Shown piece by piece: positions 16,735 through 37,779 of a stretch of 64,000 bases of DNA. The position numbers were made by a program, and so were the translations under genes. Positions within the stretch are counted from its first letter, which is position 1, and every line of letters begins with the position of its first letter. Origin of the DNA: Escherichia coli (GTDB taxonomy: Bacteria; Pseudomonadota; Gammaproteobacteria; Enterobacterales; Enterobacteriaceae); assembly GCF_044324785.1 (NCBI RefSeq), contig NZ_CP172127.1; one strand, 5' to 3'. The notes below the pieces were generated by a model. It did no database searches, was not told the DNA's origin, and was given only the letters and a program-made list of their open reading frames with translations.

Positions 16735-16953
16735 TCTCCCTGACACTCTCTCTACACGCCTTCCCCGTAAGCATTAATCAGCACAAATGCTATATCAATA
16801 AGCGTCTGACAGGGCCGTTGCTGTGCATCTATCGACGCGTAACTTCATTATACCCGGATGAAATACGTTTCGTTTAACGTTGTCGAAAAATAATTAACCG
16901 GAGAATAGCCTGCTTATTTAGCAGGAATTCCCCGGATACAGCCACAGATAAAA

Positions 16954-17739: not shown

Positions 17740-17751
17740 TAAGCACTTTCC

Positions 17752-18765: not shown

Positions 18766-18803
18766 ACGATGTCTCCTTTTTAATTTGAAATGAACGTTGT
18801 CTG

Positions 18804-19520: not shown

Positions 19521-20062
19521 GGTATTGATACGGGAGATTATGCCGTACAGGTACGACACGTTATGTCGTACCAAAGGGGAGTGGATAGAAAAAATGGCGA
19601 AGATGCGAAAAGTTTATTAATGCATTGAAAAAGATGAATTAATAATGAACTTGGGTAAAAGCGCCATCAAAATACGACACGACCTGTCGTATTTTGTGTT
19701 AGCCGGGAAAGGATATCTGCTACTTACTAAAATGATTTAGTGCTGAAAATATTTGTAAGCCAATAAATAGACCGGTATTACGGAGTAACGCCCAGGCTAT
19801 GTTAACGAGCCCGCTGTTTTATTGGCTCAAAAAACATATCCCAGAGATGATCAGCCATACCCTCGTTAGTGAGCAAGGTATCCCTTGAGTAGCCATGGCT
19901 GAAGACGCCCATTGATGGGCGAAAACCAAGGTTCTGGCCGTTAGAACAGTTATGTCGTTAAACACATCACCACCATATGCCATCCGGCTCACTTCGTCGG
20001 CCAAATTAGTGTGATATTCTTTTCAGAATTCCTGTTGTATCCACAACATAAGGCGATGATTG

Positions 20063-23000
20063 ATGGAACAGTCTCTCAATTTTGAAATGTTGCGCAGCCA
20101 GTGGCCGGAACTGGCTGAACTCGCGTGTATGGCGGAACGCTATGTTCACTCCGATCCGGAAAGCTGCCTGGTTAAGCTGCGCAACTACACCGAATTGATG
20201 GTGCGCTGGTTGTATCGTCAGGAGCGGTTGCCGGAAGGTATTAAGGCTAATCTTTACGATTTAATGAATGCTGATGTCTTTACCAGCATGATGCCGGAAG
20301 CCATCATCATGAAAATGGATGCGCTGCGTATCCATGGCAACCGTGCCGCGCACGGCGGACGTATCAAAGCTAAAGATACCTACTGGCTGCTCAAAGAAGC
20401 GTATTTGTTGGGAATTTGGCTGTATGTTCGCTACGCCCACGGTAATGTTGATGACTGCCCCAAATTTACACTCCCTCCATTAACACAATCTTCAGGTCGT
20501 GCAGATGAAAAACGTCTGGAAGATGCAATCAAGGCTCAGGATGAAAGCCGTGAGCGCGAACTGGCGCTACAACGCGCACTACAGCAAGAACAGGAAAAGG
20601 CCGAACACCTCACTCAACGCCTGAATGAAGCCAGAGCGCGTAACCAGCATGTTGCCGATATTCTCTCTATTGATGAAGCTGAAACCCGCCGTCGCCTGAT
20701 TGACTCTCGCCTGCTTGCTGCTGACTGGAATGTAGGCGAAGAACTTAAAAATACCGATCAGGTTACACAGGAACATCCAGTTAAAGAACAGCCTACCGCT
20801 ACCGGTGACGGTTATGCGGACTATGTCTTGTGGGATGAGGCACACAAACCGCTGGCGGTGGTGGAAGCAAAAAAAACCAGCGTCAATGCCGAGCAAGGAC
20901 GAATTCAGGCCCGGCTGTATGCAGACTGGCTGGAAAAAGAATACGGTCAGCGTCCGGTCATCTTCTACACCAACGGTTACGATATCTGGCTGTGGGATGA
21001 CCATAAAACTCATGGTTATCCCCCGCGTCGGGTGTTTGGCTTCTACAGCAAGGAAAGCCTGCAATATCTTATTCAGCAGCGTGAAACCCGTCTACCGCTG
21101 AACAGTGTGCCGCACGTAAAAGACAACGAAGGTAAGGCCGTTGCCGGACGTTTGTACCAGCTTGAAACCATTGCCCGCGTTAGCGAACGGTTTACCAATA
21201 AATATCGTCAGTCATTAATCGTTCAGGCCACCGGCACCGGTAAAACCCGTGTAGCGATTGCACTGAGCAAACTGATGATTGATGCCCGCTGGGTAAAACG
21301 AGTCCTGTTTCTTTGCGACCGCAAGGAACTACGTAAACAGGCGGCGAATGCCTTTAATCAATTCACCAATGAGCCGCTGTATGTGGTCGGGAAATCGAAG
21401 AAAGCAGACAGGCAGAATGCCAGGATCTACATCGCCACCTATCCTGGTATGATGAAAATCATGGACCATTTCGATGTCGGTTATTTCGATTTGATCATCG
21501 CCGATGAATCCCACCGCTCTATCTACAACGTCTACGGCGATCTGTTTAAGTATTTTGATGCCCTCCAGATTGGCCTGACGGCCACGCCGATTGACATGGT
21601 GAGTAAAACCACTTTCGGCCTTTTTGGTTGTGAAGGACGTATTCCTACCGCCAACTACAGCCTGGAAGATGCCATCGCCGATAACAATCTGGTTCCCTAT
21701 GAGGTTGTCACACACACCACAGAATTCCTGCGCGAAGGCATCAAACGGGAGAAATTAAGCGACGCACAAATCCGCGAGCTGGAAGAACAAGGTATAGATC
21801 CCAATACGCTGGAGTTTGATGGCAAGGCGCTGGATGAGGCGATCTACAACAAAGACACCAACCGCTATATCCTGCGTAACCTGATGGAAAATGGCCTGAA
21901 AGATCGGGACGGCCAGTTGCCAGGTAAAACCATCATTTTCGCCCGTAACCACAAACACGCGCTGCTGTTGAATGAATTGTTCGACGATATGTATCCGCAG
22001 TTTGCCGGACGCTTCTGCCAGGTCATCGACAACTACGATCCCCGCGCCGAGCAACTGATTGATGATTTTAAAGGGCTGGATGAAAGCACCAACAAAGAGC
22101 TGACCATCGCTATCTCTGTTGACATGCTCGATACCGGTATTGATGTCCCGGAGATTGTGAATCTGGTCTTTGCCAAACCGGTCAAATCAAAAGTGAAGTT
22201 CTGGCAGATGATTGGCCGTGGTACGCGCCTCTGTCCGGGGTTGTACGGTTACGACGATAACGGCAAACCGCTGGATAAACAGAAATTCCGCATTTTCGAT
22301 CACTGGGGCAATTTTGAGTATCACGAGCTGCATGCCGAAGAGGCCGAAGTCACAGCGACAAAATCGCTTGCACAAAAACGCTTCGAAGCGTGGGTTATGC
22401 TGGGGGCCGCTGCGCAACGTAAATTCGACAAACAGGCGGTGGATTTAGTTGCTCACCAGCTTCGCGAGCAAATCAACGCACTGGATGAAAAGTCGATTGC
22501 CGTACAGGAAAAGTGGCAGCAAAAAGCGCAGTACAGTGATGAAAAGGTGCTGCGCCAGCTTTCTCCGAAAACACAGCAGGATCTGCTATCTATTCTAGCC
22601 CCGCTGATGCAGTGGCTGGACGTGCGCGGGCAAAGCGATGCCATACGCTTTGATATGGATATTCTGGCGGCGCAAACTGCCCGTTATACCAACCCGGAAG
22701 AGCTGGATGTGCTCTGGCCGGCCATCGTCGAAAAAGTGGAGCGCCTGCCGCCGCATTTGGCGCAGGTGCAGCAACAGGGACAACGAATCAATCAGCTTCG
22801 TGATCTAGGCTGGTGGAAGCAGGCCAGTCTGGAAGAGCTGGAGGATATCCGCATTCATTTGCGCGGTATCATGCACCTGATGGAAAAAGACACGACGCCG
22901 AAATTTGGTTCGATACAGGTGGATATTACCGAAGATGCGAACCTGATCCAGACGGAGACCCGCAAAACCAACATCCGTTCGATTGATTTCAAACTCTATC

Positions 23001-23476
23001 GCCAGCAGGTTCAGGGGGCGCTGGAGCCGCTGTTCCAGCAAAATCCGGTGCTGAAGAAAATCCGCAACGGCGAGCCAGTCACGCAAAACGAGCTTGATGA
23101 ACTGGCGAAGCTGGTGCTGATCCAGAACCCCAACGTTGATATCCGGGCACTGAAAGAGTTCTATCCGCAGGCAACCGCCAGCCTGGATAAACTTTTGCGT
23201 ACCATCATCGGGATGGACAGCGACGCGGTGGAAGTGCGCTTTGCTCAGTTCGCCGCTGATAACAGTCTAACCAGCCAACAACTGCGCTTCCTGTCATTGC
23301 TGAAAAACCACATTCGCGATTACGGCACCATTGAAATGCGGCAGCTCTTTGAACAGCCTTTTACGCATATCCACAACGAAGGCGTTACCGGTGTGTTCCC
23401 TGATATAGAGCAGATCGCCCGCCTGCAAAAGATAGTCGAAGAGCTGGGTGTTGTGACCGACGCAGCGACGGTATAA
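20063..23476 (+). CDS. hsdR: Type I restriction enzyme HsdR subunit (second type I system; family not assigned)
   Basis: ~1137 aa; motifs GYADYVLW...LAVVEAKK, Walker A QATGTGKTR and DEAH-like IIADESHRS; first ATG at 20063 (ORF track begins at an upstream TTG). Confidence 0.9.
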   Translation: MEQSLNFEMLRSQWPELAELACMAERYVHSDPESCLVKLRNYTELMVRWLYRQERLPEGIKANLYDLMNADVFTSMMPEAIIMKMDALRIHGNRAAHGGRIKAKDTYWLLKEAYLLGIWLYVRYAHGNVDDCPKFTLPPLTQSSGRADEKRLEDAIKAQDESRERELALQRALQQEQEKAEHLTQRLNEARARNQHVADILSIDEAETRRRLIDSRLLAADWNVGEELKNTDQVTQEHPVKEQPTATGDGYADYVLWDEAHKPLAVVEAKKTSVNAEQGRIQARLYADWLEKEYGQRPVIFYTNGYDIWLWDDHKTHGYPPRRVFGFYSKESLQYLIQQRETRLPLNSVPHVKDNEGKAVAGRLYQLETIARVSERFTNKYRQSLIVQATGTGKTRVAIALSKLMIDARWVKRVLFLCDRKELRKQAANAFNQFTNEPLYVVGKSKKADRQNARIYIATYPGMMKIMDHFDVGYFDLIIADESHRSIYNVYGDLFKYFDALQIGLTATPIDMVSKTTFGLFGCEGRIPTANYSLEDAIADNNLVPYEVVTHTTEFLREGIKREKLSDAQIRELEEQGIDPNTLEFDGKALDEAIYNKDTNRYILRNLMENGLKDRDGQLPGKTIIFARNHKHALLLNELFDDMYPQFAGRFCQVIDNYDPRAEQLIDDFKGLDESTNKELTIAISVDMLDTGIDVPEIVNLVFAKPVKSKVKFWQMIGRGTRLCPGLYGYDDNGKPLDKQKFRIFDHWGNFEYHELHAEEAEVTATKSLAQKRFEAWVMLGAAAQRKFDKQAVDLVAHQLREQINALDEKSIAVQEKWQQKAQYSDEKVLRQLSPKTQQDLLSILAPLMQWLDVRGQSDAIRFDMDILAAQTARYTNPEELDVLWPAIVEKVERLPPHLAQVQQQGQRINQLRDLGWWKQASLEELEDIRIHLRGIMHLMEKDTTPKFGSIQVDITEDANLIQTETRKTNIRSIDFKLYRQQVQGALEPLFQQNPVLKKIRNGEPVTQNELDELAKLVLIQNPNVDIRALKEFYPQATASLDKLLRTIIGMDSDAVEVRFAQFAADNSLTSQQLRFLSLLKNHIRDYGTIEMRQLFEQPFTHIHNEGVTGVFPDIEQIARLQKIVEELGVVTDAATV

Positions 23477-23490
23477 TACGCACATGACAA

Positions 23491-23516
23491 GCCCCGGCAG
23501 CGGGGCTTTTGTATTT
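23491..23516 (+). terminator. Rho-independent terminator between hsdR and hsdM
   Basis: GC hairpin GCCCCG-GCAG-CGGGGC followed by TTTTGTATTT, 15 bp after the hsdR stop. Confidence 0.7.
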
Positions 23517-23539
23517 AAAACAGGATATAAAAGCTAACA

Positions 23540-25174
23540 ATGATCACTGGTGACTTAAAAAGTAAAATCGACGGCCTGTGGGAAGATTTCTGGGTGGGTG
23601 GTATCACCAACCCGCTGACCGTAATCGAACAGATCACCTACCTGATGTACTCCCGGATGCTGGATACCCAGGAACAACGCGACGAGAAGCGTAAACAAAT
23701 CGCGGGTATTGATTTTAAACCGCGTTTTGCGCCAGAACAGCAGGAGTTCCGTTTCAGTCACTATAGCAACCTTGGCTCGGATGAGATGATGGAAGTGGTG
23801 CGCGATGGCGTATTCCAGCATTTTCGTCAGCTCGGCCTGGCTGATACATCAAAGGTGACGCTGCTGGGCAACTTTATGAAAGATGCCCGTCTGGAGATTG
23901 TTAAGCCGTCATTGCTGACCAAAGCGGTTGAGGTGATCAAAAACCTGCCATTGGATCGCGGCGATACCAAAGGCGACCTTTACGAATACCTGTTAAGCAA
24001 GCTGACCACTGCCGGGATCAACGGCCAGTTCCGCACGCCACGCCACATTATCCGCACGATGGTTGAAATGATGGAGCCGAACCCGGCCCGCGGCGAGATG
24101 ATTTGCGATCCGGCCTGTGGCACCGGTGGTTTTCTGGCAACCAGCTATGAATATCTGCTGGAGAAGTACAGCTCGCTGGAATCCATTCATACTGAGATTG
24201 GCACCAACGAACGTGGCGAGCTGGAAGAGCAAAAAATCTTTACCGGCGATCTGCTGATACCGTGGCGTAACCATGTGGATAACAATATGTTCCACGGTTA
24301 CGACTTTGATACCACAATGCTGCGTATCGCCGCCATGAACCTGATTATGCACGGCGTGGAAGCGCCGGATATTCACTATCAGGACACCATGAGCCAGAGC
24401 TTCAGCACTAACTTCCCTCAGGCAAGTAAAAACGCTTTCAACCTGATTCTGGCGAACCCGCCGTTTACCGGTTCACTGGACGAGGAAGATATCGACTCCA
24501 CGCTGTCGGCAATGGTGAAAACCAAAAAAACTGAACTACTGTTCCTGGCGCGTATTCTGCAAATGCTGAAAGTGGGCGGGCGCAGTGCCACTATCGTGCC
24601 GCAGGGCGTGTTGTTTGGCTCCAGTAAGGCGCACCAGTCACTTCGCAAAACGCTGGTGGAAGATAACCAACTGGAAGCGGTGATCAACCTGCCTTCCGGT
24701 GTATTTAAGCCTTACGCTGGCGTGGCAACGGCTATCCTGATCTTTACCAAAGGCGGTCAGACGGACGAGGTCTGGTTCTACGATCTGCAAAATGATGGCT
24801 ACAGCCTGGATGACAAGCGTAACCCGATTAAAGACAACGACCTGCCGCATCTGCTGGCAAGCTGGAAGCATTACCGTACTTTGCGTGGTTTGCCGGTAGA
24901 TAACTTTATGGGTGAGAAGTTAGCCTCGTTGCTTAAACAGCAGTACCCGGAAGGGATTGATGCTGGCGTTGATTTTAAAGATCGCACTCAGTCGGCGTTC
25001 GTAGTTCCAAAAGAAGATATTGCTGCGCAGAAATACGATCTCTCTATTAATCGTTATAAAGAAGTGGTGTATCAGGCGGAGGAATATGAAGATCCGAAGG
25101 TGATACTGAAACGATTAAAAGATCTGGAAAAAGAGATTCTGGCGGATTTGGATGAGCTGGAGGGGATGCTGTGA
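23540..25174 (+). CDS. hsdM: Type I methyltransferase subunit HsdM (second system)
   Basis: 544 aa; FRTPRHI, AdoMet-binding DPACGTGGF and catalytic NPPF motifs. Confidence 0.9.
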
Positions 25175-26349
25175 GTTGGCCGATGGTGAAGTTAGGCGAA
25201 ATTTTTACTATATCTCGAGGGGGGTCTCCAAGACCTATTCAAGATTATATTACTGACTCCTGTCATGGAGTAAATTGGATAATGATTGGTGATACTGAGC
25301 CAAATTCAAAATACATTAGACATACAGCAAAAAAAATAAAGTTTGAAGGAGTGAAAAAATCCAGAAAGGTCTACCCTGGAGATTTATTACTTACAAACTC
25401 TATGAGTTTTGGGCGTCCATATATACTTGATGTTGAAGGATGTATACATGATGGATGGTTGGTTCTAAGTCCTAAAAATAATCAAATACATATTGATTAT
25501 TTTTATCATTATTTAAATTCTCCAGCTGCAAAAATCATCATATCAAACAAGGCTGCTGGTGCAGTTGTAAAAAATTTGAACTCAGATATCGTGAGAAACT
25601 TGGAAATTCCGTTCCCTCCATTTGCGGAACAGGTAAGGATAGCTTCAACTCTCGATAAAGTCGATGGCATACGTCAAAAACGCGACCAAGCCATCAAACT
25701 GGCTGATGATTTTTTGCGTGCTACGTTTTTAGCGATGTTTGGTGATCCTGTTGAAAACCCGAAGAGATGGGATGTTGCTTCTTTGTTAGAATATGGTTCA
25801 TTTAAAAATGGAATGAATTTTACGAAAGGTGAGTCAGGCTCTGTACTGAAGTGCCTGGGAGTTGGCAATTTCAAATCACTAGCAACGATTACCTGTATGG
25901 ACAATATCGGTGAAATTGAATTAAATACTCTCCCTTCAGATGATTATCTTTTGAAAGATGGTGATATCGTCTTTGTCCGTTCTAATGGTAATAAAGCCTT
26001 GGTCGGAAGATGTCTTACTATTTATCCAGGCAAAGAGAAAGTTACATTTAGTGGATTTTGTATCCGCTACAGAATAGAAAATACTGCAATCACCCCAGAA
26101 TATCTTAACTTTCTCTTCCGTACACCTTCAATGAAACAGCAAATGTTAAGCGGGGGGCAAGGAGCGAATATTCAGAATATTAGCCAAGGTACCTTATCCG
26201 CACTCAGGATACCAGTCCCTCCCTTAGAAAAACAACAGGCATTTTCTAAAGTAGTGAGTTTTCACTCGGCACTAATGGAAAAACTAGATATTAATACAGT
26301 TGAAATAGAAGATATGTTTGACTCAATCAGTCAACAATATTTTAATTAA
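25171..26349 (+). CDS. hsdS: Type I specificity subunit HsdS (second system)
   Basis: 392 aa; start overlaps the hsdM stop (GTG at 25171, or ATG at 25183); two AT-rich variable regions plus conserved HsdS helices. Confidence 0.85.
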   Translation: MSWPMVKLGEIFTISRGGSPRPIQDYITDSCHGVNWIMIGDTEPNSKYIRHTAKKIKFEGVKKSRKVYPGDLLLTNSMSFGRPYILDVEGCIHDGWLVLSPKNNQIHIDYFYHYLNSPAAKIIISNKAAGAVVKNLNSDIVRNLEIPFPPFAEQVRIASTLDKVDGIRQKRDQAIKLADDFLRATFLAMFGDPVENPKRWDVASLLEYGSFKNGMNFTKGESGSVLKCLGVGNFKSLATITCMDNIGEIELNTLPSDDYLLKDGDIVFVRSNGNKALVGRCLTIYPGKEKVTFSGFCIRYRIENTAITPEYLNFLFRTPSMKQQMLSGGQGANIQNISQGTLSALRIPVPPLEKQQAFSKVVSFHSALMEKLDINTVEIEDMFDSISQQYFN

Positions 26350-26370
26350 TCAGGATTATTATTAATAAAA

Positions 26371-27057
26371 ATGAAAAAAATTGATATGCGAATACTGGTC
26401 CTGTTTATACTGGCCGTAATGCCTTTGTTGCCCTATCTTTATATTTTTCATGAAGGTTTTTCCCATAAGTCTGATGATTGGGGTAATTTTGGTTCTTTTA
26501 TGGGAGGAGCCGTTGCTCCTTTCCTTTCGGTACTGAGTATAGTATTGGTTTTGAGAACAATTGAATTAACTCAAAAGAACCATGCCGAGCAACTATCACA
26601 AGTAACAAAAGAGCATAACTACAATAAATTCAATGATCTGTGCGATTTCCTTGAAAAATCTATATTAAAGAGTTGGTTGGTTAATGATAAAGAAAGACGA
26701 CAACAGGTTATCCAGTCTTTAACAATAACAACTATTGGTGATGTCGTTTTTCGTTCTAATGAAAATGCGACACCTGAAGAACAACGTCGGTATGCAGAAG
26801 AAAATGCACAAAGAGTATTGTCATTCATGTCAGATGATATCAGAGAAATAATAGTTTGCCTCGATTATTTTTGTGACTTTATCCTGGATGATAAAAATCA
26901 TGATACTGAATTCATGAAAAATATCGCAGAAATAAGGCTGGATAATCATGTTCGATTCATTATATCTCTATATGTTTACCTAAATAATAAAAATTTAAAT
27001 CTATTATTAAATAAAAAATGGAAGAGCTTTAGACCATCTATAGACGAGTTGGTATAA
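26371..27057 (+). CDS. Hypothetical 2-TM membrane protein (228 aa), same strand and 22 bp downstream of hsdS
   Basis: Two predicted N-terminal transmembrane helices (ILVLFILAVMPLLPYLYIF; FMGGAVAPFLSVLSIVLVL) followed by a ~165-aa soluble domain; very AT-rich. Confidence 0.6.
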   Translation: MKKIDMRILVLFILAVMPLLPYLYIFHEGFSHKSDDWGNFGSFMGGAVAPFLSVLSIVLVLRTIELTQKNHAEQLSQVTKEHNYNKFNDLCDFLEKSILKSWLVNDKERRQQVIQSLTITTIGDVVFRSNENATPEEQRRYAEENAQRVLSFMSDDIREIIVCLDYFCDFILDDKNHDTEFMKNIAEIRLDNHVRFIISLYVYLNNKNLNLLLNKKWKSFRPSIDELV

Positions 27058-27097
27058 CTATTGTCCCGCCAATTGTTTTATAATTGGCGGGATGTCA

Positions 27098-30000
27098 TTA
27101 TTTTTTGAACTCAACCAGTCTCTTATATTGGGGGGTATTAATTAACTTTTTCTTAGCTTTGATAATATCGACCAAACAGATTTCTATTTCCTCAGCACAT
27201 CCTCGTTGATTATCCATAATCAAACTGATAAGTTCTAATGTTTGAGATGGAAATTTATTTGGTATCTCTGACTCGTATAATTTTTTCAGTGTATAATGAG
27301 GCCATTCAAATGGAATGATCCACGGTTTTACAGTATCGAATATATCCTGAAACCTATCCTGGCCCGCAATACAGAGTTGCACTAAATTCTCTGAAATTCC
27401 CGGCGTCCTTAACTTTTGAGATTTTGGCCATATCTTCTTTAAAAATATTTTTATACAGTTATCCCAATATTCAGAATATTGTTCTCCTGAGCTTTCAATT
27501 GCATCTACAAGAGTATTAGTTGAGATTATCAGGCTCTCCGATGGAAGATTTCTAAACGCTTTTTGATAATCGTCAAGAACATAGTCTTTTGTCGGTTCAA
27601 GTGCAGCATATGTCAAAAAGATAGTATATTGTTTTTTAGCATCAGTATCTCCAAGATCTTGATAGTGTTCCGCTGTTTTCAAAAAAGCTTGTTTAAATGC
27701 AGCAAGCAATGGGGCATAAAGACGAGGGGTCCATAAGAAACCAGGCCATACTGATTTTGCTTCAAGAAAATTACTATCCCAAATAAATAATGGTAGAAGG
27801 TACTTTTTCGCCCAATTTGTGTCAACTCTGAATAATGGGATCAAATTTGAGGCTAAAATAACTCTGGAATTTCTGAAAGAGATATTATGGGTGTCACATA
27901 GCTTTGTGAAAAAGACTTTCAATTTATCTGGTATGCCCTCATTATCATGCGGCTTACCATTGAGCCATATATTTATTAATGCTTGTGTAATATTTCCTAC
28001 AGGATGATTTATAGCTTGTATTATTGATTTATAATCATCTGTTTCATCGTAACTAAAATCTATAATACGCTGACAATATGTAGTATAAACATCATTCAAC
28101 TCACTCATTCCTGTGGAAATTTTCGCTAACCATTGAGCGAGGCTGTGCTGAATCTCAGGGAATAAATCATCTGGAATATTTAATAATAATGGTCCTATTT
28201 CTTGCCAGGACTCCTGAATCAGGTCTTTATCACACCAAGTCTGTAAACCTGAACGCCAATATTTGCATGGCCAAATATCCTCCATGGCTAATTCGCGAAG
28301 CACACAAACAATCATCGGTAAGTTTTGTTTACATATTTCGATCCAGTTATCACGTTCAAACGGAGATGATTTCTTATTATCAGCCCTTTCTCTTAACCAG
28401 TTGATGATGCCGTCCTTTGTATCTGGGACCATTTCTGTAATTATTTCCTCTTCAAAATCGGGATCTCCTGTTCCACTCATCCAATGCGAAAATTCGTCTC
28501 TTTCATTTGTGGTCAATTTCCAGTAAGGATGTTTTTCTGATAAAAAATCCAATTTGTTCTGTGCATTTATATTGAGCTTTACACCTGAAAATTGTAGTTT
28601 TGATAAGAACAACCATATATTTCTTTCGACTATATTTTCCCATTCATTCTCATTAATAGAAATATTGAATAATTCCTGTGAATATCCTAGTGTTATTGCA
28701 TTTTCAAGCTTTCGTTGTTCAATGGCAGTTAGTGTTTTACCTTGCAAAACGAAGAGTCGGCAAACTTCACGATGAGTATCAATAGCCCACAACCAATAGC
28801 CATTTTGTTCCAGTAATAGATTCACCCATTCTTTAGCATCAATGCATTCATTATAACTGGCAGAAAAAATGACCAAACGCTTAAATACTGGATATGGAAA
28901 TGACCACCAATTTAAAGCAAGTTTTTTAGCTTTGTTTTTATCTATTTCATAGATTTGCAACCAAGAATCTCTCAAAAGTTCAATTAGTTTCACCCAATTA
29001 CGATAACCTCTATTTTGCCAATGAGGCGTAATTGATGGTAAGTCCCAAAAAGATCGATCACTTGCACTTATGGAATTATCATTCAGTTCAAATTGTAAAT
29101 CCATCGCATCAAGAAGTAATTGTTGAAGATCATCAAACAAGGATGGCAAGATTTCCTTCCATATTGATTTATTTTCTAAATCTTGTAGCCAATAAAGATC
29201 TGTTGATATATTTAATTCATGCCTTACAGATTGTGAAATATTTTTTTCATTTTGGGATGATTTATTAAAATTTAGTTGAAAAGGTTGTTGCAGGATAAGG
29301 GTAGGCGCTAAAATTTTTCTTAGCGCTAACCGGCAAGCCATATTGAAATTGCCATGTTGAAATTGATCTATCCAATAATTATTTTCATATACAGATGAAT
29401 TGGTCCCTATTCTTCCTGCTAAGAATAAACGCCAAATAGCTCGTAAATTCTGAGATGGGATCGCATGTAGTCCTTCTTGCTTGATACGTTTGAGAGACTG
29501 CTCCTCATTGTTTCTTTCTAATCGTTCAATCTCACTCAACCTATTACTTATTAAATTTGATAACTGGGGATGCAGTTTTCCCCCTTGCTTTGCTAACCAA
29601 ATGATTAAGTCAACGTTACCAATATGTTTTATCAGCCATAAACAAATATATACCATAACAGAATCCCACTGACAAAATTCGCCACCAAAAGAAGCTAAAC
29701 TCATTCGTGGTGAAAGTTTGTATGAGGAAGGGCGATTAATCAGGCTAAATTGAAGATTAGGATCAAATTCAGAATGGGCCGGGGTATTAAAGCGAGGTAG
29801 ATCTGGATATCTATAAGATTTTTTTTCAAATTCCCATAACCAACTTAGTGTGGGAGCAGGATTCATTTCTGCCAGGCGTTTTGCGGGCTTACCGGAATTA
29901 TCACTTAATGCCCATAAAACCCTTCCAACAAAATTATCCTCTTGAGTACTTGTCGAAGGATGGGCAATTACATATTGGGCTACAATTCTTTCTTTACCCA

Positions 30001-30889
30001 TACTTCCATTGTTATATATTTCTCCCCATATTTTTAATGTCTCATGAAGTAATTCATGCTTCTTAGTCGTTTTGTACAAAACAGGAATGACCCCTTTGGC
30101 TTCCCAAATTTCAGCCGTTGTAGATTCTTCATTTGGTTTATAATCTGCAAAGGCATATGCTTGAGGGGTATATTCGCCTAACATCCTATCTGCTGCTAAA
30201 GCATCCATCATATAGCGTAATACAGGATCATTAATACTATATCCTATAAAACAAACAACATAGTTTCTAAATAGTTCACTTACAAATCTGGCAGCCCATC
30301 TTTCTGTTAAATAAGCACATCCGAAATCACCACTGGTAACTACCAGACGGTTCAACTCTGTATGATTTTTTTTATCATGAGGTAATATTCCGTGCAAGTA
30401 AACCACTCCATTCCATCTACTATTTTTTGGAACAGGTAACATAGGTGCCAAATATGATGTTAGTTTCTTCTCCATATTTTTCGCAGCTATGTCAAAAAGA
30501 TGATCAAAATTTGTGGTGACAAGTCGTATGCGCCCACCTTGATCTTGAGATAATTGTAAGAGAGCATTATGAGTTGTTAGGGCATTTTTTCTTCGAACCT
30601 TTGGTTTCAATATCTGAGACAATGCATAGCGTACAGTTTGTTTATTTCCTACTATTCTTCTCTCAAGAAGTTCTAATGTTGTATCATATTGGTAAGCTTT
30701 ATAGGCGGCTTCTTCGAGAGCATTCCGTGTTTCACCGATTCTTTGATATATGTTGTCAACCAAATCTCCAAACCCCGGTAATCCAGCAGGATATGAAATT
30801 CCCGCTCCGCAGAAGAATACAACTTTCCCCTCTTCGTGTGCTTGTAGTAATGAATCGGGAATATCTGGACCATTAGTAATAAACTGCAT
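27098..30889 (-). CDS. Large SIR2-domain protein (1263 aa): N-terminal sirtuin-like NADase domain plus ~1000-aa helical C-terminal region; candidate defence-associated sirtuin (DSR-like) single-gene defence protein
   Basis: N-terminal Rossmann motif VVFFCGAGISYPAGLPGFGDL (GAGIS), TTNFDHLF (TTN-D motif) and a conserved His in VYLHGIL, as in SIR2/DSR/ThsA NADases; no similarity to housekeeping CobB is evident; monocistronic on the minus strand. Confidence 0.7.
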   Translation of the reverse strand: MQFITNGPDIPDSLLQAHEEGKVVFFCGAGISYPAGLPGFGDLVDNIYQRIGETRNALEEAAYKAYQYDTTLELLERRIVGNKQTVRYALSQILKPKVRRKNALTTHNALLQLSQDQGGRIRLVTTNFDHLFDIAAKNMEKKLTSYLAPMLPVPKNSRWNGVVYLHGILPHDKKNHTELNRLVVTSGDFGCAYLTERWAARFVSELFRNYVVCFIGYSINDPVLRYMMDALAADRMLGEYTPQAYAFADYKPNEESTTAEIWEAKGVIPVLYKTTKKHELLHETLKIWGEIYNNGSMGKERIVAQYVIAHPSTSTQEDNFVGRVLWALSDNSGKPAKRLAEMNPAPTLSWLWEFEKKSYRYPDLPRFNTPAHSEFDPNLQFSLINRPSSYKLSPRMSLASFGGEFCQWDSVMVYICLWLIKHIGNVDLIIWLAKQGGKLHPQLSNLISNRLSEIERLERNNEEQSLKRIKQEGLHAIPSQNLRAIWRLFLAGRIGTNSSVYENNYWIDQFQHGNFNMACRLALRKILAPTLILQQPFQLNFNKSSQNEKNISQSVRHELNISTDLYWLQDLENKSIWKEILPSLFDDLQQLLLDAMDLQFELNDNSISASDRSFWDLPSITPHWQNRGYRNWVKLIELLRDSWLQIYEIDKNKAKKLALNWWSFPYPVFKRLVIFSASYNECIDAKEWVNLLLEQNGYWLWAIDTHREVCRLFVLQGKTLTAIEQRKLENAITLGYSQELFNISINENEWENIVERNIWLFLSKLQFSGVKLNINAQNKLDFLSEKHPYWKLTTNERDEFSHWMSGTGDPDFEEEIITEMVPDTKDGIINWLRERADNKKSSPFERDNWIEICKQNLPMIVCVLRELAMEDIWPCKYWRSGLQTWCDKDLIQESWQEIGPLLLNIPDDLFPEIQHSLAQWLAKISTGMSELNDVYTTYCQRIIDFSYDETDDYKSIIQAINHPVGNITQALINIWLNGKPHDNEGIPDKLKVFFTKLCDTHNISFRNSRVILASNLIPLFRVDTNWAKKYLLPLFIWDSNFLEAKSVWPGFLWTPRLYAPLLAAFKQAFLKTAEHYQDLGDTDAKKQYTIFLTYAALEPTKDYVLDDYQKAFRNLPSESLIISTNTLVDAIESSGEQYSEYWDNCIKIFLKKIWPKSQKLRTPGISENLVQLCIAGQDRFQDIFDTVKPWIIPFEWPHYTLKKLYESEIPNKFPSQTLELISLIMDNQRGCAEEIEICLVDIIKAKKKLINTPQYKRLVEFKK

Positions 30890-31038
30890 CTCGTTGCCTG
30901 GTTAGTTTGTGAAATGAATTTTGATTATAAATCTTCTTTATTGGTTCATGTAAGAAATCGGCACTGCCTTTTGACCGATAGCTGATATAGTATGTCTAAG
31001 TTATGATGATATAACATTTCTTACCTTGGATAGTAACA

Positions 31039-32004
31039 ATGCCTTTAGATTTAAGTAAAACTTTAGTTATTGGCATCAGCGCGACTGCGCTTTTTGATAT
31101 GAGTGAATCAGATCACATGTTTCGCGAAACCTTTGTGACTGATCCTGATAGCGCCATTGAAAAATACCGCGCTTATATGCTAGAACACGAAAACCAACCT
31201 TTACAGCCCGGAACAGGCTACCCCTTAGTCAAAGCGTTGCTGGGTCTGAACCAGTACCGTCAACCGGATGATAAATCGCCGTTGGTTGAGGTTGTTGTGA
31301 TGTCACGTAACAGCCCTGATACCGGTATCCGTGTTCTGAATACTATTCGCCATGACAGGCTCGATATCACTCGATCGGCCTTTACGGCAGGCGAAACCGT
31401 TGCCGATTACCTTGATGCCTTTGATGTGGATCTGTTTTTAACGACCAACGTCGAGGATGCGCAAAAGGTGATTGATTCCCGATTCTGCGCCGCTGCAATC
31501 CTGAAAGATCCTCCTTCCGACGCATCTGATATCCCGGAAGGGCAAGTGCGCATTGCTTTTGACGGCGACGCGGTACTTTTTTCCGATCAAAGCGAACTGG
31601 TTTATAAGACCCAAGGAATGGCTGCCTTTCATGCTCAGGAAGACGCGCAGCAGGATATCCCTATGGAAGAGGGGCCTTATGCCACTTTGCTAAAAAAAAT
31701 AGCCAAGCTTCAGGAACGATTGCCGACCCGCGTTGAGTATTCTCCTGTTCGTATTGCGCTGGTGACAGCCCGAAATAGCCCTTCGGAAATGCGCGTTATT
31801 AAAACGCTAAGAAGCTGGGGGGTATATGTCGATGAAGCTTTTTTTCTTGGCGGTGTAGAGAAAACAAAAGTTCTGAAGGCGTTTAAGCCACACATTTTCT
31901 TTGACGATCAGGATGTACATTTGATCGCGGCTGCAAAGGTAGTACCTTCTGGTAAAGTACCTTATGCCAGTAACTCCGAACTGGCAGAACGTGAAGCATC
32001 GTGA
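31039..32004 (+). CDS. HAD-superfamily 5'-nucleotidase-like protein (321 aa)
   Basis: HAD motif I-like FDGDAVLF (DxDxV); overall resemblance to the bacterial/eukaryotic cytosolic 5'-nucleotidase family from memory; divergent from the SIR2 gene with a 149-bp intergenic region. Confidence 0.55.
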   Translation: MPLDLSKTLVIGISATALFDMSESDHMFRETFVTDPDSAIEKYRAYMLEHENQPLQPGTGYPLVKALLGLNQYRQPDDKSPLVEVVVMSRNSPDTGIRVLNTIRHDRLDITRSAFTAGETVADYLDAFDVDLFLTTNVEDAQKVIDSRFCAAAILKDPPSDASDIPEGQVRIAFDGDAVLFSDQSELVYKTQGMAAFHAQEDAQQDIPMEEGPYATLLKKIAKLQERLPTRVEYSPVRIALVTARNSPSEMRVIKTLRSWGVYVDEAFFLGGVEKTKVLKAFKPHIFFDDQDVHLIAAAKVVPSGKVPYASNSELAEREAS

Positions 32005-32081: not shown

Positions 32082-32957
32082 TCAATGCTCTCCTCTGAAC
32101 ACCTCTTTTCTGTGCCATTCAACAAACTGCTCGCCCGGATAATTTTCTTTAACCGGTGGCAACGCAATCGCCTTTCCCGCAAAATCCCAGAACAGTCGCT
32201 GTACCACTCCACCACCATTTACCGCGCCGGAAACCACCACACGCATATTTTCATCCAAGCCAATCGAACCGCGATCAAACGCTTTATGATGGATTGCGCA
32301 CAATGCCAGGCCATTAGGTACTTCACAAGGGCCATGGTGCTGCTTCCATCTGATATGAGCGGCTTCCAGAGCAATCGGCGCATTGTCGTGGCGCATGTTA
32401 AAGCCGCAGATAGCGCACTGATAATTGTAAGCACGTAGCACCATCTGGCGAAACTTCGGATCGCGTTGACGGAGAGAGGTGCGAATATCAAAACCCATCT
32501 CGTCAGCGATCTCTTCCTGAATACTGGCCGGGAAATGCGCCTCCAGGAGCTGCTGCGCCAGCGTATCAATTAACCTGTGATTTTTTGCCACCAACGCAAA
32601 ATTATCGGCATCAAATCCACCAGCAACATTATATTCAATGAGTTCTCGTCGGGGCGGCTGGCGGCTACCACTGGTTGAGCACAGTTCCGCGTTATGTAGT
32701 TCCCAGAAGCCATCGCCCTTCAGACGCCAGAACGGCATGTCCGGGCGCTGGTCACGGCGCTGCGGTCCATAACGTTCCAGGAGATCCAACAGGGGCTCGT
32801 AGATTTCAGAACCATAGTTAAACAGGCGACCATGACCCTGCCGATAGTGTGAGAGAACGTACAGCAGCAATAATGGCTTATGTGGCGCACGTTGTTCGCC
32901 TTTGCGCCAGATGGTGATATTTGATATCGCTTGCTTTAGGGTTTTGTCAGAGGTCAT
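32082..32957 (-). CDS. HNH-motif nuclease with uncharacterised N-terminal domain (candidate modification-dependent type IV restriction endonuclease)
   Basis: C-terminal HNH-like motif YNYQCAICGF...AAHI...LCAIHHKAFD; start set at the first in-frame ATG (the ORF track begins at a TTG at 33002); monocistronic. Confidence 0.55.
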   Translation of the reverse strand: MTSDKTLKQAISNITIWRKGEQRAPHKPLLLLYVLSHYRQGHGRLFNYGSEIYEPLLDLLERYGPQRRDQRPDMPFWRLKGDGFWELHNAELCSTSGSRQPPRRELIEYNVAGGFDADNFALVAKNHRLIDTLAQQLLEAHFPASIQEEIADEMGFDIRTSLRQRDPKFRQMVLRAYNYQCAICGFNMRHDNAPIALEAAHIRWKQHHGPCEVPNGLALCAIHHKAFDRGSIGLDENMRVVVSGAVNGGGVVQRLFWDFAGKAIALPPVKENYPGEQFVEWHRKEVFRGEH

Positions 32958-33172
32958 TGCGTTGGAGAATCCATGAGCACATATTTGCGATGATGCTCGC
33001 AACTATATGTACATTCAAGGCATTATTGCAGACATCCTTTTTCTCTGGCGGTTCTGTACCTGGCAGATAGAATTCTGATAACAACGGTAAAAAATACAGC
33101 GACCAACCAGTCCTAAGCGGGCTGGTTGGTCTTTTAAATTTAAACATCAGCCGAGGAATAACGGCATTCAAC

Positions 33173-34441
33173 TCACTCGCCATTACCCCGATTGATCTTC
33201 GCATAGTCAAACGGCGTAATCGCTCTCTCCCGATTCGCATCCAGAAAATCGGCCCACCACTGCAACATCAGCTTGCGCTCATCCAGATGTTCCGCTTTAT
33301 GGATATACGCCGCTCGCACCGAATTGCGCTCCATATGACTCATCTGTCGTTCCACCGCATCCTTCGACCATAACCCGGACTCAATTAACGAGCTACAGGC
33401 CATTGTGCGGAAGCCGTGGCCGCAAACTTCAACCTTAGTGTCATAACCCATCACCCGTAGCGCACTGTTCACCGTGTTTTCACTCATGGGCTTACGCGGA
33501 TCGTGATCGCCAATAAAAATCAGCTCATGCTCACCACAGAACTGCTTTATCTGCTTCAGGATCGCCAGCGCCTGCTTTGAAAGCGGCACCAGATGCGGTG
33601 TGCGCATCTTTGTTCCTCGCTGAGAATGTTTCACGCCGGGAATCGGTTCTCGCTCAGGAGGGATGGTCCACATTGATGTTTCAAAATCGATCTCTGACCA
33701 ACGAGCAAAACGCAGCTCACTGGACCGAATAAAGATAAGCAGAGTGAGTTCTGTCGCCCAGCGGGTTAGCGGCCTGCCGGTATAGCCGTCTATTTTCTCA
33801 AGCAACTCAGGGATGCGCTTTAACTCCAGCGCCGGACGATGCTGTCGATTACTGGAAGCAACCGCCCCCGCCATCTCTTGCGCCGGATTGTAATCAATTA
33901 ACCCGCTTTGCACTGCATAACGCATGATGGCCGTGGTGCGCTGTTGAAGGCGGGAAGCCACTTCAAGGCGTCCGGATTTCTCCACGGCTTTAATAGGAAT
34001 TAACAGATCGCGGGTGCCTAGTTCAGCAATATTGCGAGTACCAATTGCCGGGAAGATATTGTCCTCCAGGCTCTTTTTTACACGATTAGCATGATCTTCC
34101 GACCATTTTTGGTTGGTTACGAACCACTCTCTGGCAACCTTCTCGAAAGTAATAATCTCTTTCGCCTGCTCTTCTTTCACAGCACGCTTATGCTCACGAG
34201 GATCGATACCAGCAGCTACCAGCTTTCTGGCCTCTTCCCTTTTCTTCCGCGCATCCGCCAGTGAAACATCCGGGTAAACGCCGAACGCCATCAAATGTTG
34301 TTTACCGCCAAAACGGAAACGAAATCGCCAATACTTTGAACCGCCAGGTTTTACAAGTAAGGACATGCCGTCGCCGTCAACAAGTGAATACTCTTTCTCC
34401 TCTGGTTTCGCAGAACGAACTTTAGTATCCGTTAGGGCCAT
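33173..34441 (-). CDS. intB: P4-family tyrosine integrase (IntB-like), adjacent to the tRNA-Leu 3' end
   Basis: 422 aa from MALTDTKVRSAKP...; catalytic-domain motifs of phage integrases (HGFRTMA..., HxxR region); followed by a hairpin plus U-tract terminator at ~33088..33131 on the minus strand. Confidence 0.9.
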   Translation of the reverse strand: MALTDTKVRSAKPEEKEYSLVDGDGMSLLVKPGGSKYWRFRFRFGGKQHLMAFGVYPDVSLADARKKREEARKLVAAGIDPREHKRAVKEEQAKEIITFEKVAREWFVTNQKWSEDHANRVKKSLEDNIFPAIGTRNIAELGTRDLLIPIKAVEKSGRLEVASRLQQRTTAIMRYAVQSGLIDYNPAQEMAGAVASSNRQHRPALELKRIPELLEKIDGYTGRPLTRWATELTLLIFIRSSELRFARWSEIDFETSMWTIPPEREPIPGVKHSQRGTKMRTPHLVPLSKQALAILKQIKQFCGEHELIFIGDHDPRKPMSENTVNSALRVMGYDTKVEVCGHGFRTMACSSLIESGLWSKDAVERQMSHMERNSVRAAYIHKAEHLDERKLMLQWWADFLDANRERAITPFDYAKINRGNGE

Positions 34442-34640
34442 AGTGGTCTTCCTTCCATTGGTATCTCGTGAGTATACAAGCAATATCGAATCGGCAAATA
34501 TACTCATTAGTATACTCACAAGCCTGTTGATGTGGGTTGAGTCAGGTTGACTTCAGTTGAGGAGAAAAGCTGGAAAAGCCTTGTGTAGCGCGGATTTCAG
34601 GCATAAAAAAAGACCTCAGTTGAGGTCTATTTACATACTT

Positions 34641-34725
34641 TTGGTGCCGAAGGCCGGACTCGAACCGGCACGTATTTCTACGGTTGATTTTGAATCAACT
34701 GCGTCTACCGATTTCGCCACTTCGG
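34641..34725 (-). tRNA. leuX: tRNA-Leu (anticodon CAA), leuX
   Basis: Reverse complement reads GCCGAAGTGGCGAAATCGGTAGACGCAGTTGATTCAAAATCAACCGTAGAAATACGTGCCGGTTCGAGTCCGGCCTTCGGCACCA, an 85-nt type II tRNA with CAA anticodon and CCA end. Confidence 0.97.
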
Positions 34726-34921
34726 CACTGAAGAGGTATGCGGAAAACGTTGTGGATTATACCTGTCGCACGCCACCATGCAAGCGCCAGCTTGCTCGCA
34801 CCTCGCTAAGTGCTGAAATTTTCAGCATTGCATACAGCGATGTGTAACCTTTGTCACACTCCAGGCACCCCGCCCTGCCATGCTCTACACTTCCCAGACA
34901 ACACCAGAGAAGGACCAAAAA

Positions 34922-35941
34922 ATGTCGATGATAAAAAGCTACGCCGCAAAAGAGGCTGGCGGCGAACTGGAACTTTATGAGTACGATCCCGGTGAACTGA
35001 AGCCACAAGATGTTGAAGTGCAGGTGGATTACTGCGGGATCTGCCATTCCGATCTGTCGATGATCGACAACGAATGGGGATTTTCACAGTATCCGCTGGT
35101 TGCCGGGCATGAGGTGATTGGTCGCGTGGTGGCGCTCGGGAGTGCCGCACAGGATAAAGGTTTGCAGGTCGGTCAGCGTGTCGGGATTGGCTGGACGGCA
35201 CGCAGCTGCGGGCATTGCGATGCCTGTATTAGCGGTAATCAGATCAACTGCGAGCAAGGCGCGGTGCCGACGATTATGAATCGCGGCGGCTTTGCTGAGA
35301 AGCTGCGTGCGGACTGGCAATGGGTGATCCCACTGCCAGAAAATATCGACATTGAATCTGCTGGGCCGCTGTTGTGCGGCGGTATCACGGTCTTTAAACC
35401 ACTGTTGATGCACCATATCACTGCCACCAGCCGCGTCGGCGTAATTGGTATTGGCGGGCTGGGGCATATCGCTATAAAACTTCTGCACGCAATGGGATGC
35501 GAGGTGACAGCCTTTAGTTCGAATCCGGCGAAAGAGCAGGAAGTGCTGGCGATGGGTGCCGATAAAGTGGTGAATAGCCGCGATCCGCAGGCACTCAAAG
35601 CACTGGCGGGGCAGTTTGATCTCATTATCAACACCGTCAACGTCAGCCTCGACTGGCAGCCTTATTTTGAGGCGCTGACGTATGGCGGTAATTTCCATAC
35701 GGTCGGTGCGGTTCTCACGCCGCTGTCTGTTCCGGCCTTTACGTTAATTGCGGGCGATCGCAGTGTCTCAGGTTCGGCAACCGGTACGCCTTATGAGCTG
35801 CGTAAGCTGATGCGCTTTGCCACCCGCAGCAAGGTTGCGCCGACCACCGAACTGTTCCCGATGTCGAAAATAAACGACGCCATCCAGCATGTGCGCAACG
35901 GTAAGGCGCGTTACCGCGTGGTTCTGAAAGCCGATTTTTGA
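34922..35941 (+). CDS. ahr: NADPH-dependent aldehyde reductase Ahr (YjgB), zinc-dependent alcohol dehydrogenase family
   Basis: 339 aa from [11 protein letters not shown]...; zinc-ADH motifs GHEVIGRV and C-x-x-C-x-x-C; K-12 synteny next to leuX. Confidence 0.92.
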
Positions 35942-35944
35942 AAA

Positions 35945-36508
35945 TCATTCGCAGCGCTGATCTGAGGCGCTGCCCCCTTTCGCACATATTCTGTCTTGTC
36001 GTATCGCCAGCACGGCCTGCCGACATTGTTCGGTGACATTGGCAATATCATGGTTGATATCAATGCGCACAATATCCTGTTCATCTGCTTGTGGACGCTC
36101 CAGCGCCTCAAACTGACTTTTTAGTAACGCTACCGGCATAAAATGCCCAGCCCGCCGCTGCATTCGCGCGAGAATAGTTTCATAGTCGCCATCTAACCAG
36201 AGGAAATGAACATGGGGGCTACCCTTGCGTAAAATATCACGATACTGTTTTTTTAATGATGAACAGACAATAAATCCTGTTTCATTCTTTTTATAAAGAC
36301 TGTATGAAGCATCATTTAAGCGTTCCAGCCAGGGAAGTCGATCTTCATCAGATAATGGAATACCCTGCGACATTTTATCTATATTTTTGGCTGGATGAAG
36401 ATCGTCACCATCAATAAATTTAGCAGATAATAACGCGGCAACCTTGCTACCAATTAATGTTTTACCACTCCCTGAAACGCCCATCAAAATAAAGCTTTCA
36501 CCCGCCAT
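35945..36508 (-). CDS. idnK: Gluconokinase (thermosensitive), IdnK
   Basis: 187 aa; P-loop GVSGSGKT; K-12 synteny, divergent from idnD. Confidence 0.92.
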   Translation of the reverse strand: MAGESFILMGVSGSGKTLIGSKVAALLSAKFIDGDDLHPAKNIDKMSQGIPLSDEDRLPWLERLNDASYSLYKKNETGFIVCSSLKKQYRDILRKGSPHVHFLWLDGDYETILARMQRRAGHFMPVALLKSQFEALERPQADEQDIVRIDINHDIANVTEQCRQAVLAIRQDRICAKGGSASDQRCE

Positions 36509-36610
36509 TTAAAATCTCCTGAATCATCTTACCTGCTGCGATACTACGCCTAGTGGCATAATAATTTCACGTTTTTTTATTTCTGCTGATAAGAATTACA
36601 AGGCACATCA

Positions 36611-36640
36611 CGTTATGCGTAACATAGTAATGTAACAATT
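36611..36640. promoter_or_regulatory. Putative IdnR/GntR-type operator(s) in the idnK-idnD divergent promoter region
   Basis: Palindromic CGTTATGCGTAACAT followed by ATGTTAC-like half-site, resembling the recalled gnt operator consensus ATGTTACCGGTAACAT. Confidence 0.35.
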
Positions 36641-36724
36641 TTCTGACGTGATCTTCATCACAAATAATGACAATTAAAACCGCTTAAATGCTTCCGAGGT
36701 GTCTACCTGACCAGTGAGGAATTT

Positions 36725-37756: not shown

Positions 37757-37779
37757 GAGATAAATAAAGGAATAATACA

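Follow-up and report, generated by a model that had tools for sequence, protein, structure and literature searches.

An intact dsr1 gene of a less common Dsr1 lineage in a leuX tRNA-associated defence island of Escherichia coli

Dsr1 proteins have been studied against several phages, and the published outcomes of their activation differ. DSR1 depletes NAD+ upon phi29 infection and is protective, and the NAD+ loss is transient, without collapse of the culture (bioRxiv 10.1101/2021.12.14.472415). The dsr1 gene of E. coli ECOR17 guards MG1655 against T4 lacking nrdC.5, and T4 nrdC.5 is a phage counter-measure to Dsr1 (PMC9391042); DSR1 is also overcome by NARP1, an NAD+ reconstitution pathway (10.1101/2024.02.11.579819). 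For EcDsr1 (WP_029488749.1), a 2026 preprint gives the major capsid protein of phage ZL19 as the unique activator, and the legend to its Extended Data Fig. 2h states that disruption of the NADase domain abolishes the cell death that accompanies capsid-protein co-expression (10.64898/2026.01.04.697583). Transient NAD+ loss without collapse in one report thus stands against death on capsid co-expression in another. Two further systems are close to Dsr1. DSR2 of Bacillus subtilis (PDB 8k98, 8wyb and others) works in a similar way: one polypeptide combines a SIR2 NADase at its N terminus with an alpha-solenoid sensor at its C terminus, and the sensor binds a phage structural protein, the tail tube protein, and so brings about NAD+ depletion. 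Avs7, a STAND NTPase receptor represented by SeAvs7 of Salmonella, has a sensor homologous to that of Dsr1, and both are activated by capsid protein (10.64898/2026.01.04.697583); a role of EF-Tu has been described for SeAvs7.

In the window analysed here, a 64,000-nucleotide stretch of E. coli DNA, the open reading frame list and the translation confirm a gene on the minus strand that starts with ATG and encodes a protein of 1263 aa (Table 1). The original prediction, made from the letters alone, described it as a candidate DSR-like single-gene defence that depletes NAD+, with SIR2 at the N terminus and a sensor at the C terminus, and could not place it in DSR1, DSR2 or an unnamed clade. Profile searches support the description and settle the placement. 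The NCBIfam equivalog model NF041818.1 ('anti-phage defense-associated sirtuin Dsr1'), which has a cut-off of 1400 bits, matches at 1670.4 bits, with protein residues 1–1262 on model positions 1–1262 of 1263, and the PADLOC Dsr1 model PDLC02183 matches at E = 0 and 1606.7 bits, with residues 1–1262 on model positions 1–1270 of 1275. PADLOC model PDLC04167 also matches (654 bits), and there is no Dsr2 model among the PADLOC matches. Full-length HMM matches at E = 0, combined with the length of the open reading frame, exclude chance by far. Judged by its sequence, the protein is Dsr1, and not DSR2, ThsA or a member of an unnamed clade.

An identical protein, present on 185 contigs, is named Dsr1 in NCBI, and RefSeq annotates as dsr1 a gene of 97.8% nucleotide identity in 14 complete E. 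coli genomes. Annotation of the identical protein in public E. coli genomes thus predates this analysis, and the locus is ordinary and already known. We are highly confident that the gene is dsr1, an already named single-gene anti-phage defence of a leuX tRNA-associated island, and that confidence extends jointly to the mechanism proposed below; beyond its correct annotation, the finding has little significance. The gene is AT-rich, as had been noted, with 35.5% GC against 46.7% for the window.

Table 1. Position of dsr1, its parts and its neighbours in the 64,000-nucleotide window
Feature	Coordinates	Strand	Basis or remark
dsr1 coding sequence	27098..30889	-	1263 aa + stop; ORF list, translation, NF041818.1, PADLOC
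N-terminal SIR2 domain (predicted NADase effector), residues 1–270	30080..30889	-	Pfam, KomC alignment; Rossmann motif VVFFCGAGIS
Codon of predicted catalytic Asn127 (TTNFD)	30509..30511	-	Position verified; homologue conservation
Codon of predicted catalytic His166 (YLHG)	30392..30394	-	Position verified; KomC His146 alignment
C-terminal sensor region, residues 271–1263 (~990 aa), all-alpha HEAT/ARM-like solenoid	27101..30079	-	AlphaFold2 model, homologues
Divergent intergenic region, 149 bp, presumed dsr1 promoter and RBS	30890..31038	.	Shared with PDC-S08 gene; arrangement only
Hairpin, 15-bp stem, between convergent hyp228 and dsr1	27062..27094	.	Terminator-like scan
PDC-S08 5'-nucleotidase-family gene	31039-32004	divergent from dsr1	PF06189, E 8.5e-119; PADLOC candidate model
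Integrase	33173-34519	-	
tRNA-Leu(CAA)	34642-34726	-	
hsdR/M/S type I R-M operon	20060-26349	+	

The effector end of the protein belongs to the SIR2_2 type. Pfam SIR2_2 (PF13289) covers residues 123–268 (E 2.5e-21), and the SIR2 NADase of KomC (PDB 8zsf) aligns over residues 13–262 (E 1e-5). All of the sirtuin signatures that had been read from the translation are in place, with VVFFCGAGIS at residues 23–32, TTNFD at 125–129 and YLHG, which contains His166, at 164–167. In 43 homologues, the alignment columns of Asn127 (column 174) and His166 (column 217) are each at least 90% conserved; Asn127 is also kept in CB9615-type Dsr1 and in P0016, and His166 aligns with KomC His146, the residue that is mutated in PDB 9xvc ('KomC(H146N)'). 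This copy of dsr1 is therefore intact, in that the Asn and the His are both present and the protein spans the model almost from end to end. The classical SIR2 family PF02146 gave a partial match only (E 0.34, 11.3 bits), and a classical sirtuin deacylase was rejected; human SIRT2/3 and yeast Hst2 match the Rossmann motif only (E 0.003–0.02).

Beyond this domain, no enzymatic motif had been recognised, and the searches agree: residues 301–1263 match no Pfam family (best E 0.18), and DUF4020 is absent from the sensor, although some of its structural neighbours bear that label. The AlphaFold2 model of the region is nearly all helix (pLDDT 86.7, pTM 0.78) and superimposes on AlphaFold Database (AFDB) models of Dsr1 homologues with TM scores of 0.89–0.94. 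Fold searches of the PDB with the sensor returned generic solenoid matches only, and the PDB sequence and fold search results contained no Dsr1 structure. With the sensor alone as the query, 1464 matches were obtained, the best 120 of which show 41–51% identity at 98–100% coverage; SIR2_2 fusion proteins of around 1270 aa make up nearly all of them, and four are shorter proteins without a Pfam domain. The sensor is homologous from end to end to more than 1400 Dsr1 proteins. Among representative clusters, 2323 match it at E ≤ 0.001, and in the best 150 of these the sensor starts at around residue 300 in proteins of around 1250 aa. The original prediction had allowed that the sensor may be novel, which is not supported by these matches or by the publication of a trigger for an E. 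coli Dsr1: on the evidence of homology, the region is the canonical Dsr1 sensor. The AFDB search also found the same fold in proteins without a SIR2 label, for example in DUF4020 proteins and in an 'ATP-binding protein' fragment (TM 0.84).

The protein resembles described Dsr1 proteins in its N-terminal SIR2_2 domain with Asn and His, its helical sensor of around 1000 aa, its single-gene organisation and its location on a mobile element. It differs in belonging to a rarer 1263-aa lineage, found on the leuX island in 14 of 5426 complete E. coli genomes, whereas the commoner E. coli lineage, of 1275 aa, is prophage-borne and present in 75 genomes. Membership of DSR2 was rejected: in addition to the missing PADLOC match, PDB chains of DSR2 match the Rossmann motif only (E 0.06), and no homology to the middle and C-terminal domains that bind the tail tube protein was found. 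The likeness to ThsA of Thoeris is limited to SIR2 (PADLOC ThsA on residues 14–260, E 8.9e-9); the matches are confined to residues 12–260, there is no SLOG/STALD domain, and no ThsB is present among the scanned neighbours. Unlike Avs7, the gene encodes neither a STAND NTPase domain nor a nuclease effector, its effector being SIR2; Pfam detects no NTPase family in residues 1–400 or 301–1263, and the sensor follows directly after SIR2. KomC, SIR2-HerA, SIR2-APAZ/pAgo and Avs5 have a SIR2-type NADase effector in common with it, and the likeness stops there. A partnership of the SIR2-HerA or pAgo kind was rejected, as the scanned genes include no HerA or Argonaute neighbour.

By analogy with published homologues, from which NAD+ depletion, phage protection, the capsid trigger and phage counter-measures are all taken, we propose that the helical-repeat C-terminal region of around 990 aa is the receptor and that its ligand is a protein which the phage produces while it infects the cell; for the tested E. 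coli Dsr1, this ligand is the major capsid protein of T1-like phages (Drexlerviridae). Once bound, the phage protein would free the N-terminal SIR2 domain, which would then hydrolyse NAD+ to ADP-ribose and nicotinamide by means of Asn127 and His166. The resulting drop in NAD+ would block phage replication and, depending on the phage and the conditions, the outcome may be either a transient fall in NAD+ with survival or the death of the cell. We infer that this allele is active, and likewise infer its phages and its phage trigger.

The arrangement of the locus is that of a single gene. The original prediction called it monocistronic, and both flanks agree: the upstream neighbour is divergent and the downstream neighbour, hyp228, is convergent at a distance of 40 bp, with a hairpin in between. 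This hairpin sits 4 bp past the dsr1 stop codon, has 15 pairs (6 of them G-C), a loop of 3 and a T-rich tail on the plus strand, and is likely to be a bidirectional terminator. The 149-bp region upstream of dsr1 contains no consensus sigma-70 match, so the dsr1 promoter is placed there from gene arrangement only, and expression is assumed. Proximity to an integrase and to a type I R-M operon, both pointed out beforehand, was confirmed, and the surrounding island also includes AbiE, PDC-S08, a PT-dependent HNH endonuclease and a second type I R-M system. The same leuX tRNA island occurs in the 14 E. coli genomes, where the order is integrase, PT-DNA HNH endonuclease, PDC-S08 5'-nucleotidase, dsr1, small membrane protein and type I R-M. 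The leuX 3' end has no second (att) copy within the window, and the island therefore extends beyond the left end of the window. Other Dsr1 lineages stand by themselves, either next to a prophage integrase or within an ICE-like contig; the neighbours vary between lineages, and no obligatory partner gene is seen at the locus. With dsr1, a leuX island that already stacks several systems would gain a further defence, one that depletes NAD+; knowing this helps to predict the phage susceptibility of the strain.

Sequence divergence in the sensor bears on what this lineage recognises. The 1263-aa and 1275-aa lineages are 47% identical overall, with 67% identity in the SIR2 domain against 42.7% in the sensor; the closest sensor outside the 1263-aa cluster is 51% identical and the others around 42%. 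The NF041818.1 score is also lower than that of the common lineage (1670 versus 2056 bits), which makes the 1263-aa lineage a peripheral member of Dsr1. Together with the published action of Dsr1 homologues on phages as unrelated as phi29, T4 lacking nrdC.5 and T1-like phages, these differences give some room to the idea, possible but rather unlikely, that the diverged sensor recognises a phage component other than the Drexlerviridae major capsid protein while the effector mechanism stays the same. Against it, the fold is conserved (TM around 0.9 to models of Dsr1 homologues), capsid sensing is common to the far more divergent sensors of the Avs7 type (10.64898/2026.01.04.697583), and the tested EcDsr1 could itself be of the 1263-aa lineage; its accession was not found in the cluster listings or among six dsr1 loci with accessions. 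Should the tested proteins (WP_029488749.1 and ECOR17 Dsr1) be of the 1275-aa lineage instead, the present sensor would share just 42.7% identity with theirs, and its trigger or phage range might differ. That the trigger specificity or the phage range of the 1263-aa lineage differs from that of the tested Dsr1 proteins is, on this balance, a tentative suggestion that we doubt; if true, the lineage would represent natural variation in the specificity of an immune receptor that senses capsid protein.

Two further readings were considered. Because dsr1 shares its divergent intergenic region with the PDC-S08 gene, which encodes a PF06189 5'-nucleotidase that matches a candidate defence model, and because the pair is kept in the 14 E. 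coli genomes with the 1263-aa lineage, the two could form a unit in which the nucleotidase processes, for example, nucleotides or NAD+ breakdown products. We regard this as very improbable: the pair is kept only because the entire island is common to those genomes, the PDC-S08 neighbour is absent from the prophage Dsr1 loci and from the ICE-like contig of the closest outside relative, PADLOC treats PDC-S08 as a separate candidate system, and Dsr1 by itself confers defence once cloned, as homologues demonstrate (bioRxiv 10.1101/2021.12.14.472415, PMC9391042). Hardly credible is a reading of the gene as a defunct relic, or as a sirtuin with a housekeeping role and protein deacylase activity, instead of an active defence gene. 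It can draw on the weak classical SIR2 match and on the 90% cluster, which holds many truncated members, such as a 554-aa form on 70 contigs, so that dsr1 is disrupted in some strains. The open reading frame here, however, is full length relative to the model with both catalytic residues intact, the identical full-length protein recurs on 185 contigs, the SIR2_2 type of domain is the one found in NADase effectors, unlike the classical deacetylase family, and the gene is located in a mobile defence island.

The 1263-aa lineage occurs in both E. coli and Salmonella; WP_053264524.1 and WP_001159679.1 are examples of E. coli Dsr1. Comparison of the window allele with that of E. coli 1500 gave 44 synonymous versus 36 non-synonymous codon differences. 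Diversifying selection specific to the sensor was rejected as an explanation, because the 3'-end enrichment in differences runs on into the next two genes; this pattern looks like a recombination tract.

On profile evidence from two independent curated libraries, the 1263-aa SIR2-domain protein is Dsr1 from end to end. Its residues 1–1262 aligned with positions 1–1262 of the 1263 in NCBIfam NF041818.1 ('anti-phage defense-associated sirtuin Dsr1'), an equivalog model with a curated cut-off of 1400 bits, at 1670.4 bits, and with positions 1–1270 of the 1275 in the PADLOC Dsr1 model PDLC02183 (E = 0, 1606.7 bits). A second PADLOC Dsr1 model matched at 654 bits, and the remaining PADLOC matches (LmuA, ThsA and generic SIR2) extended over no more than the N-terminal ~260 residues, with E = 1e-10 at best. 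The original prediction of a DSR-like, NAD+-depleting SIR2 defence gene was thus correct in family, and the full-length matches settle the choice that it had left between DSR1, DSR2 and an unnamed SIR2 clade in favour of DSR1. The expected SIR2-family match at the N-terminus is Pfam SIR2_2 (PF13289; residues 123–268, E = 2.5e-21), and a Pfam search of residues 301–1263 found no family, in keeping with a C-terminal region described as having no recognisable enzymatic motif. The sirtuin signatures noted earlier all lie in the translated ORF: the Rossmann-type motif VVFFCGAGIS (residues 23–32), TTNFD (125–129, including Asn127) and, for the conserved histidine, YLHG (164–167, including His166). 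The predicted catalytic residues, Asn127 and His166, are both intact and show family-wide conservation; His166 lines up with His146 of KomC, which is mutated in PDB 9xvc. This is a known gene that existing annotation lists by this name, with the exact sequence present in NCBI as 'anti-phage defense-associated sirtuin Dsr1 [Escherichia coli]' (EFL9677805.1 and others).

The genomic setting is as originally described. dsr1 is AT-rich (35.5% GC versus 46.7% across the window) and, because its upstream neighbour is divergent (across a 149-bp intergenic region) and its downstream neighbour convergent (40 bp away, with a hairpin between), it is monocistronic. The integrase and tRNA-Leu(CAA) lie about 2.3 kb upstream, and the type I restriction–modification (R–M) operon flanks dsr1 on its opposite side. 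The insertion site of the island is the leuX tRNA gene; the flanking ahr, idnK, idnD and idnO genes share 98.6% identity with E. coli and are found in nearly all E. coli genomes, which places the window on an E. coli chromosome. The leuX 3′ end is not duplicated anywhere within the window, so the island continues beyond its left end.

Features of the leuX island and flanking chromosome (positions within the window)
Feature	Coordinates	Strand	Details
Second complete type I R–M	3240-9200	+	hsdM 518 aa, hsdS 389 aa, hsdR 1038 aa
AbiEii/AbiEi toxin–antitoxin abortive-infection pair	9620-11024	-	PADLOC E 8.4e-128 and 5.3e-53
Type I R–M operon hsdR, hsdM, hsdS	20060-26349	+	opposite side of dsr1 from integrase
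Mosaic tract	25171-28045		hsdS, 228-aa gene, 3′ end of dsr1; divergence from E. coli 1500 island
228-aa ORF	26371-27057	+	22 bp after hsdS, same strand; GC 32.6%
Hairpin	27062-27094		15-bp stem; between dsr1 and convergent downstream gene
dsr1 ORF	27098-30889	-	ATG start, 1263 codons
5′-nucleotidase family protein	31039-32004	+	PF06189 E 8.5e-119; PADLOC PDC-S08 E 6.7e-134
Phosphorothioated-DNA-binding HNH restriction endonuclease	32082-33002	-	NF045808.1, 444.7 bits vs cut-off 180; adjoins integrase
Integrase	33173-34519	-	~2.3 kb upstream of dsr1
tRNA-Leu(CAA), leuX	34642-34726	-	
ahr, idnK, idnD, idnO	34880-38544		all intact
yjgL	53840-55717	-	625-aa ORF; 34% GC; strong negative GC skew; amid otherwise core chromosome

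Among 5426 complete E. coli genomes, 14 carry a 97.8% nucleotide-identical gene annotated dsr1, which is plasmid-borne in one of them. The same 14 share the whole module at ~96.7% nucleotide identity: integrase, phosphorothioated (PT)-DNA HNH endonuclease, PF06189 5′-nucleotidase, dsr1, 228-aa protein, hsdS, hsdM and hsdR. The HNH enzyme belongs to the modification-dependent nucleases, with PT-modified DNA as its target, and the gene matching PDC-S08, a PADLOC candidate defence model, is transcribed divergently from dsr1. The 228-aa protein has two N-terminal hydrophobic segments (about residues 6–26 and 42–64) and no match in Pfam, NCBIfam or PADLOC, although two PHROGs whose function is unknown match it weakly. 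Its gene may encode an accessory membrane protein belonging to the R–M operon or be a separate abortive-infection-type gene. Further left, the second type I R–M (hsdR matching PADLOC REase_I at 1600 bits) is missing from otherwise similar islands, the best-matching genomes covering only 57% of window positions 1–20000, and so probably arose by insertion or exchange inside the island. The AbiE pair is adjoined by CbtA/YeeU, RadC and DUF932 genes, for which the related leuX island of E. coli JNE141411 likewise has annotations, and this part of the island also encodes a GTPase and a WYL protein.

The window Dsr1 differs from the E. coli 1500 allele at 36 amino acids, of which only 3 lie within SIR2. 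Selection acting specifically on the sensor, the helical region that follows SIR2, was considered as the cause and rejected, because the divergence at the 3′ end of dsr1 (4–6% of nucleotides at gene positions 2845–3792, against about 1% at 1–2528) runs on into the 228-aa gene (18% nucleotide divergence, 83% identical) and hsdS (35% amino-acid identity; the target recognition domains differ). Genes beyond this stretch are 97.4–99.7% identical at the protein level between the two islands. The pattern is that of recombination rather than sensor-specific selection, and looks like a single tract that exchanges R–M specificity and extends into the sensor part of dsr1.

The identical Dsr1 sequence occurs on 185 contigs, and its 90% cluster has 271 members, among them a Salmonella enterica protein. 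Truncated proteins are frequent in this cluster (a 554-aa form on 70 contigs; others of 852, 694 and 680 aa), which indicates that in some E. coli strains dsr1 has repeatedly been disrupted or split.

At least two Dsr1 lineages exist in E. coli. The commoner, with a 1275-aa protein (for example, WP_001159679.1 in O55:H7 CB9615), gave short 60–80% nucleotide matches in 75 genomes. Its gene directly adjoins a prophage integrase near yjjG in the loci inspected (L002 8566-12393 and L003 9001-12828) and lies unannotated in a Stx2c-converting phage record (LC727881.1 2049-5861), and is therefore a prophage-carried defence gene. The window protein is 47% identical to this lineage overall (SIR2 67%, sensor 42.7%). 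A sensor-only search of 5.8 billion proteins returned a single relative at 51% identity, whose ICE-like contig also encodes TraC_F_IV and DUF3438, and all others at about 41–44%. Against NF041818.1, the window lineage scored 1670 bits, this relative 1808 and the common lineage 2056; having the lowest score, still above the cut-off, the window lineage properly belongs to the family, but at its periphery. When HMMER was run with the sensor against 1.84 billion representative proteins, 2323 clusters matched at E ≤ 0.001 (677 at E ≤ 1e-30); in the best 150 of the 2323, the sensor mostly begins near residue 300 in proteins of ~1250 aa or lies in shorter fragments.

The mechanism most likely to apply is drawn from what has been published on homologues rather than from the window allele. 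DSR1 protects against phage phi29 with a transient fall in NAD+ and without culture collapse (Garb et al., bioRxiv 10.1101/2021.12.14.472415), and NARP1, a phage NAD+ reconstitution pathway, defeats it (10.1101/2024.02.11.579819). ECOR17 dsr1 with 300 bp upstream, on a pBR322 plasmid, shields MG1655 from a T4 clone lacking nrdC.5, and nrdC.5 expression restores infection (Srikant et al., eLife, PMC9391042). A 2026 preprint (10.64898/2026.01.04.697583) reports that E. coli Dsr1 WP_029488749.1 (EcDsr1) protects against a few Drexlerviridae phages, that a 73-gene co-expression screen singled out the ZL19 major capsid protein as its only activator and that the Dsr1 sensor is homologous to that of Avs7; according to the legend to its Extended Data Fig. 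2h, toxicity was abrogated when the NADase domain was disrupted. Together with the intact Asn127 and His166, these data suggest that the helical sensor would bind a phage protein, probably a major capsid protein, activating the SIR2 NADase, and that NAD+ loss would halt phage replication. That the window allele is active, and which phages it may sense, is inferred. In AFDB50, the sensor model matched models of Dsr1 homologues (TM 0.89–0.94), DUF4020-labelled proteins and an 'ATP-binding protein' fragment (TM 0.84), which fits the published claim of a sensor shared with STAND ATPases. WP_029488749.1 was absent from the Dsr1 cluster listings and from six dsr1 loci checked for accessions. A trigger range different from that of the tested Dsr1 proteins, the sole reading of this gene with some novelty, is conceivable for this peripheral lineage but rather doubtful.

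On the chromosomal side, yjgL, whose product matched no NCBIfam model, is annotated only as 'protein YjgL' and is present in most E. coli genomes, mostly at only 80–95% identity. All that E. coli 1500 retains of the ahr and idn genes next to leuX is an alcohol dehydrogenase pseudogene fragment (L001 10743-10978), whereas these genes are intact here; this side of the leuX junction thus varies among strains with the same island.
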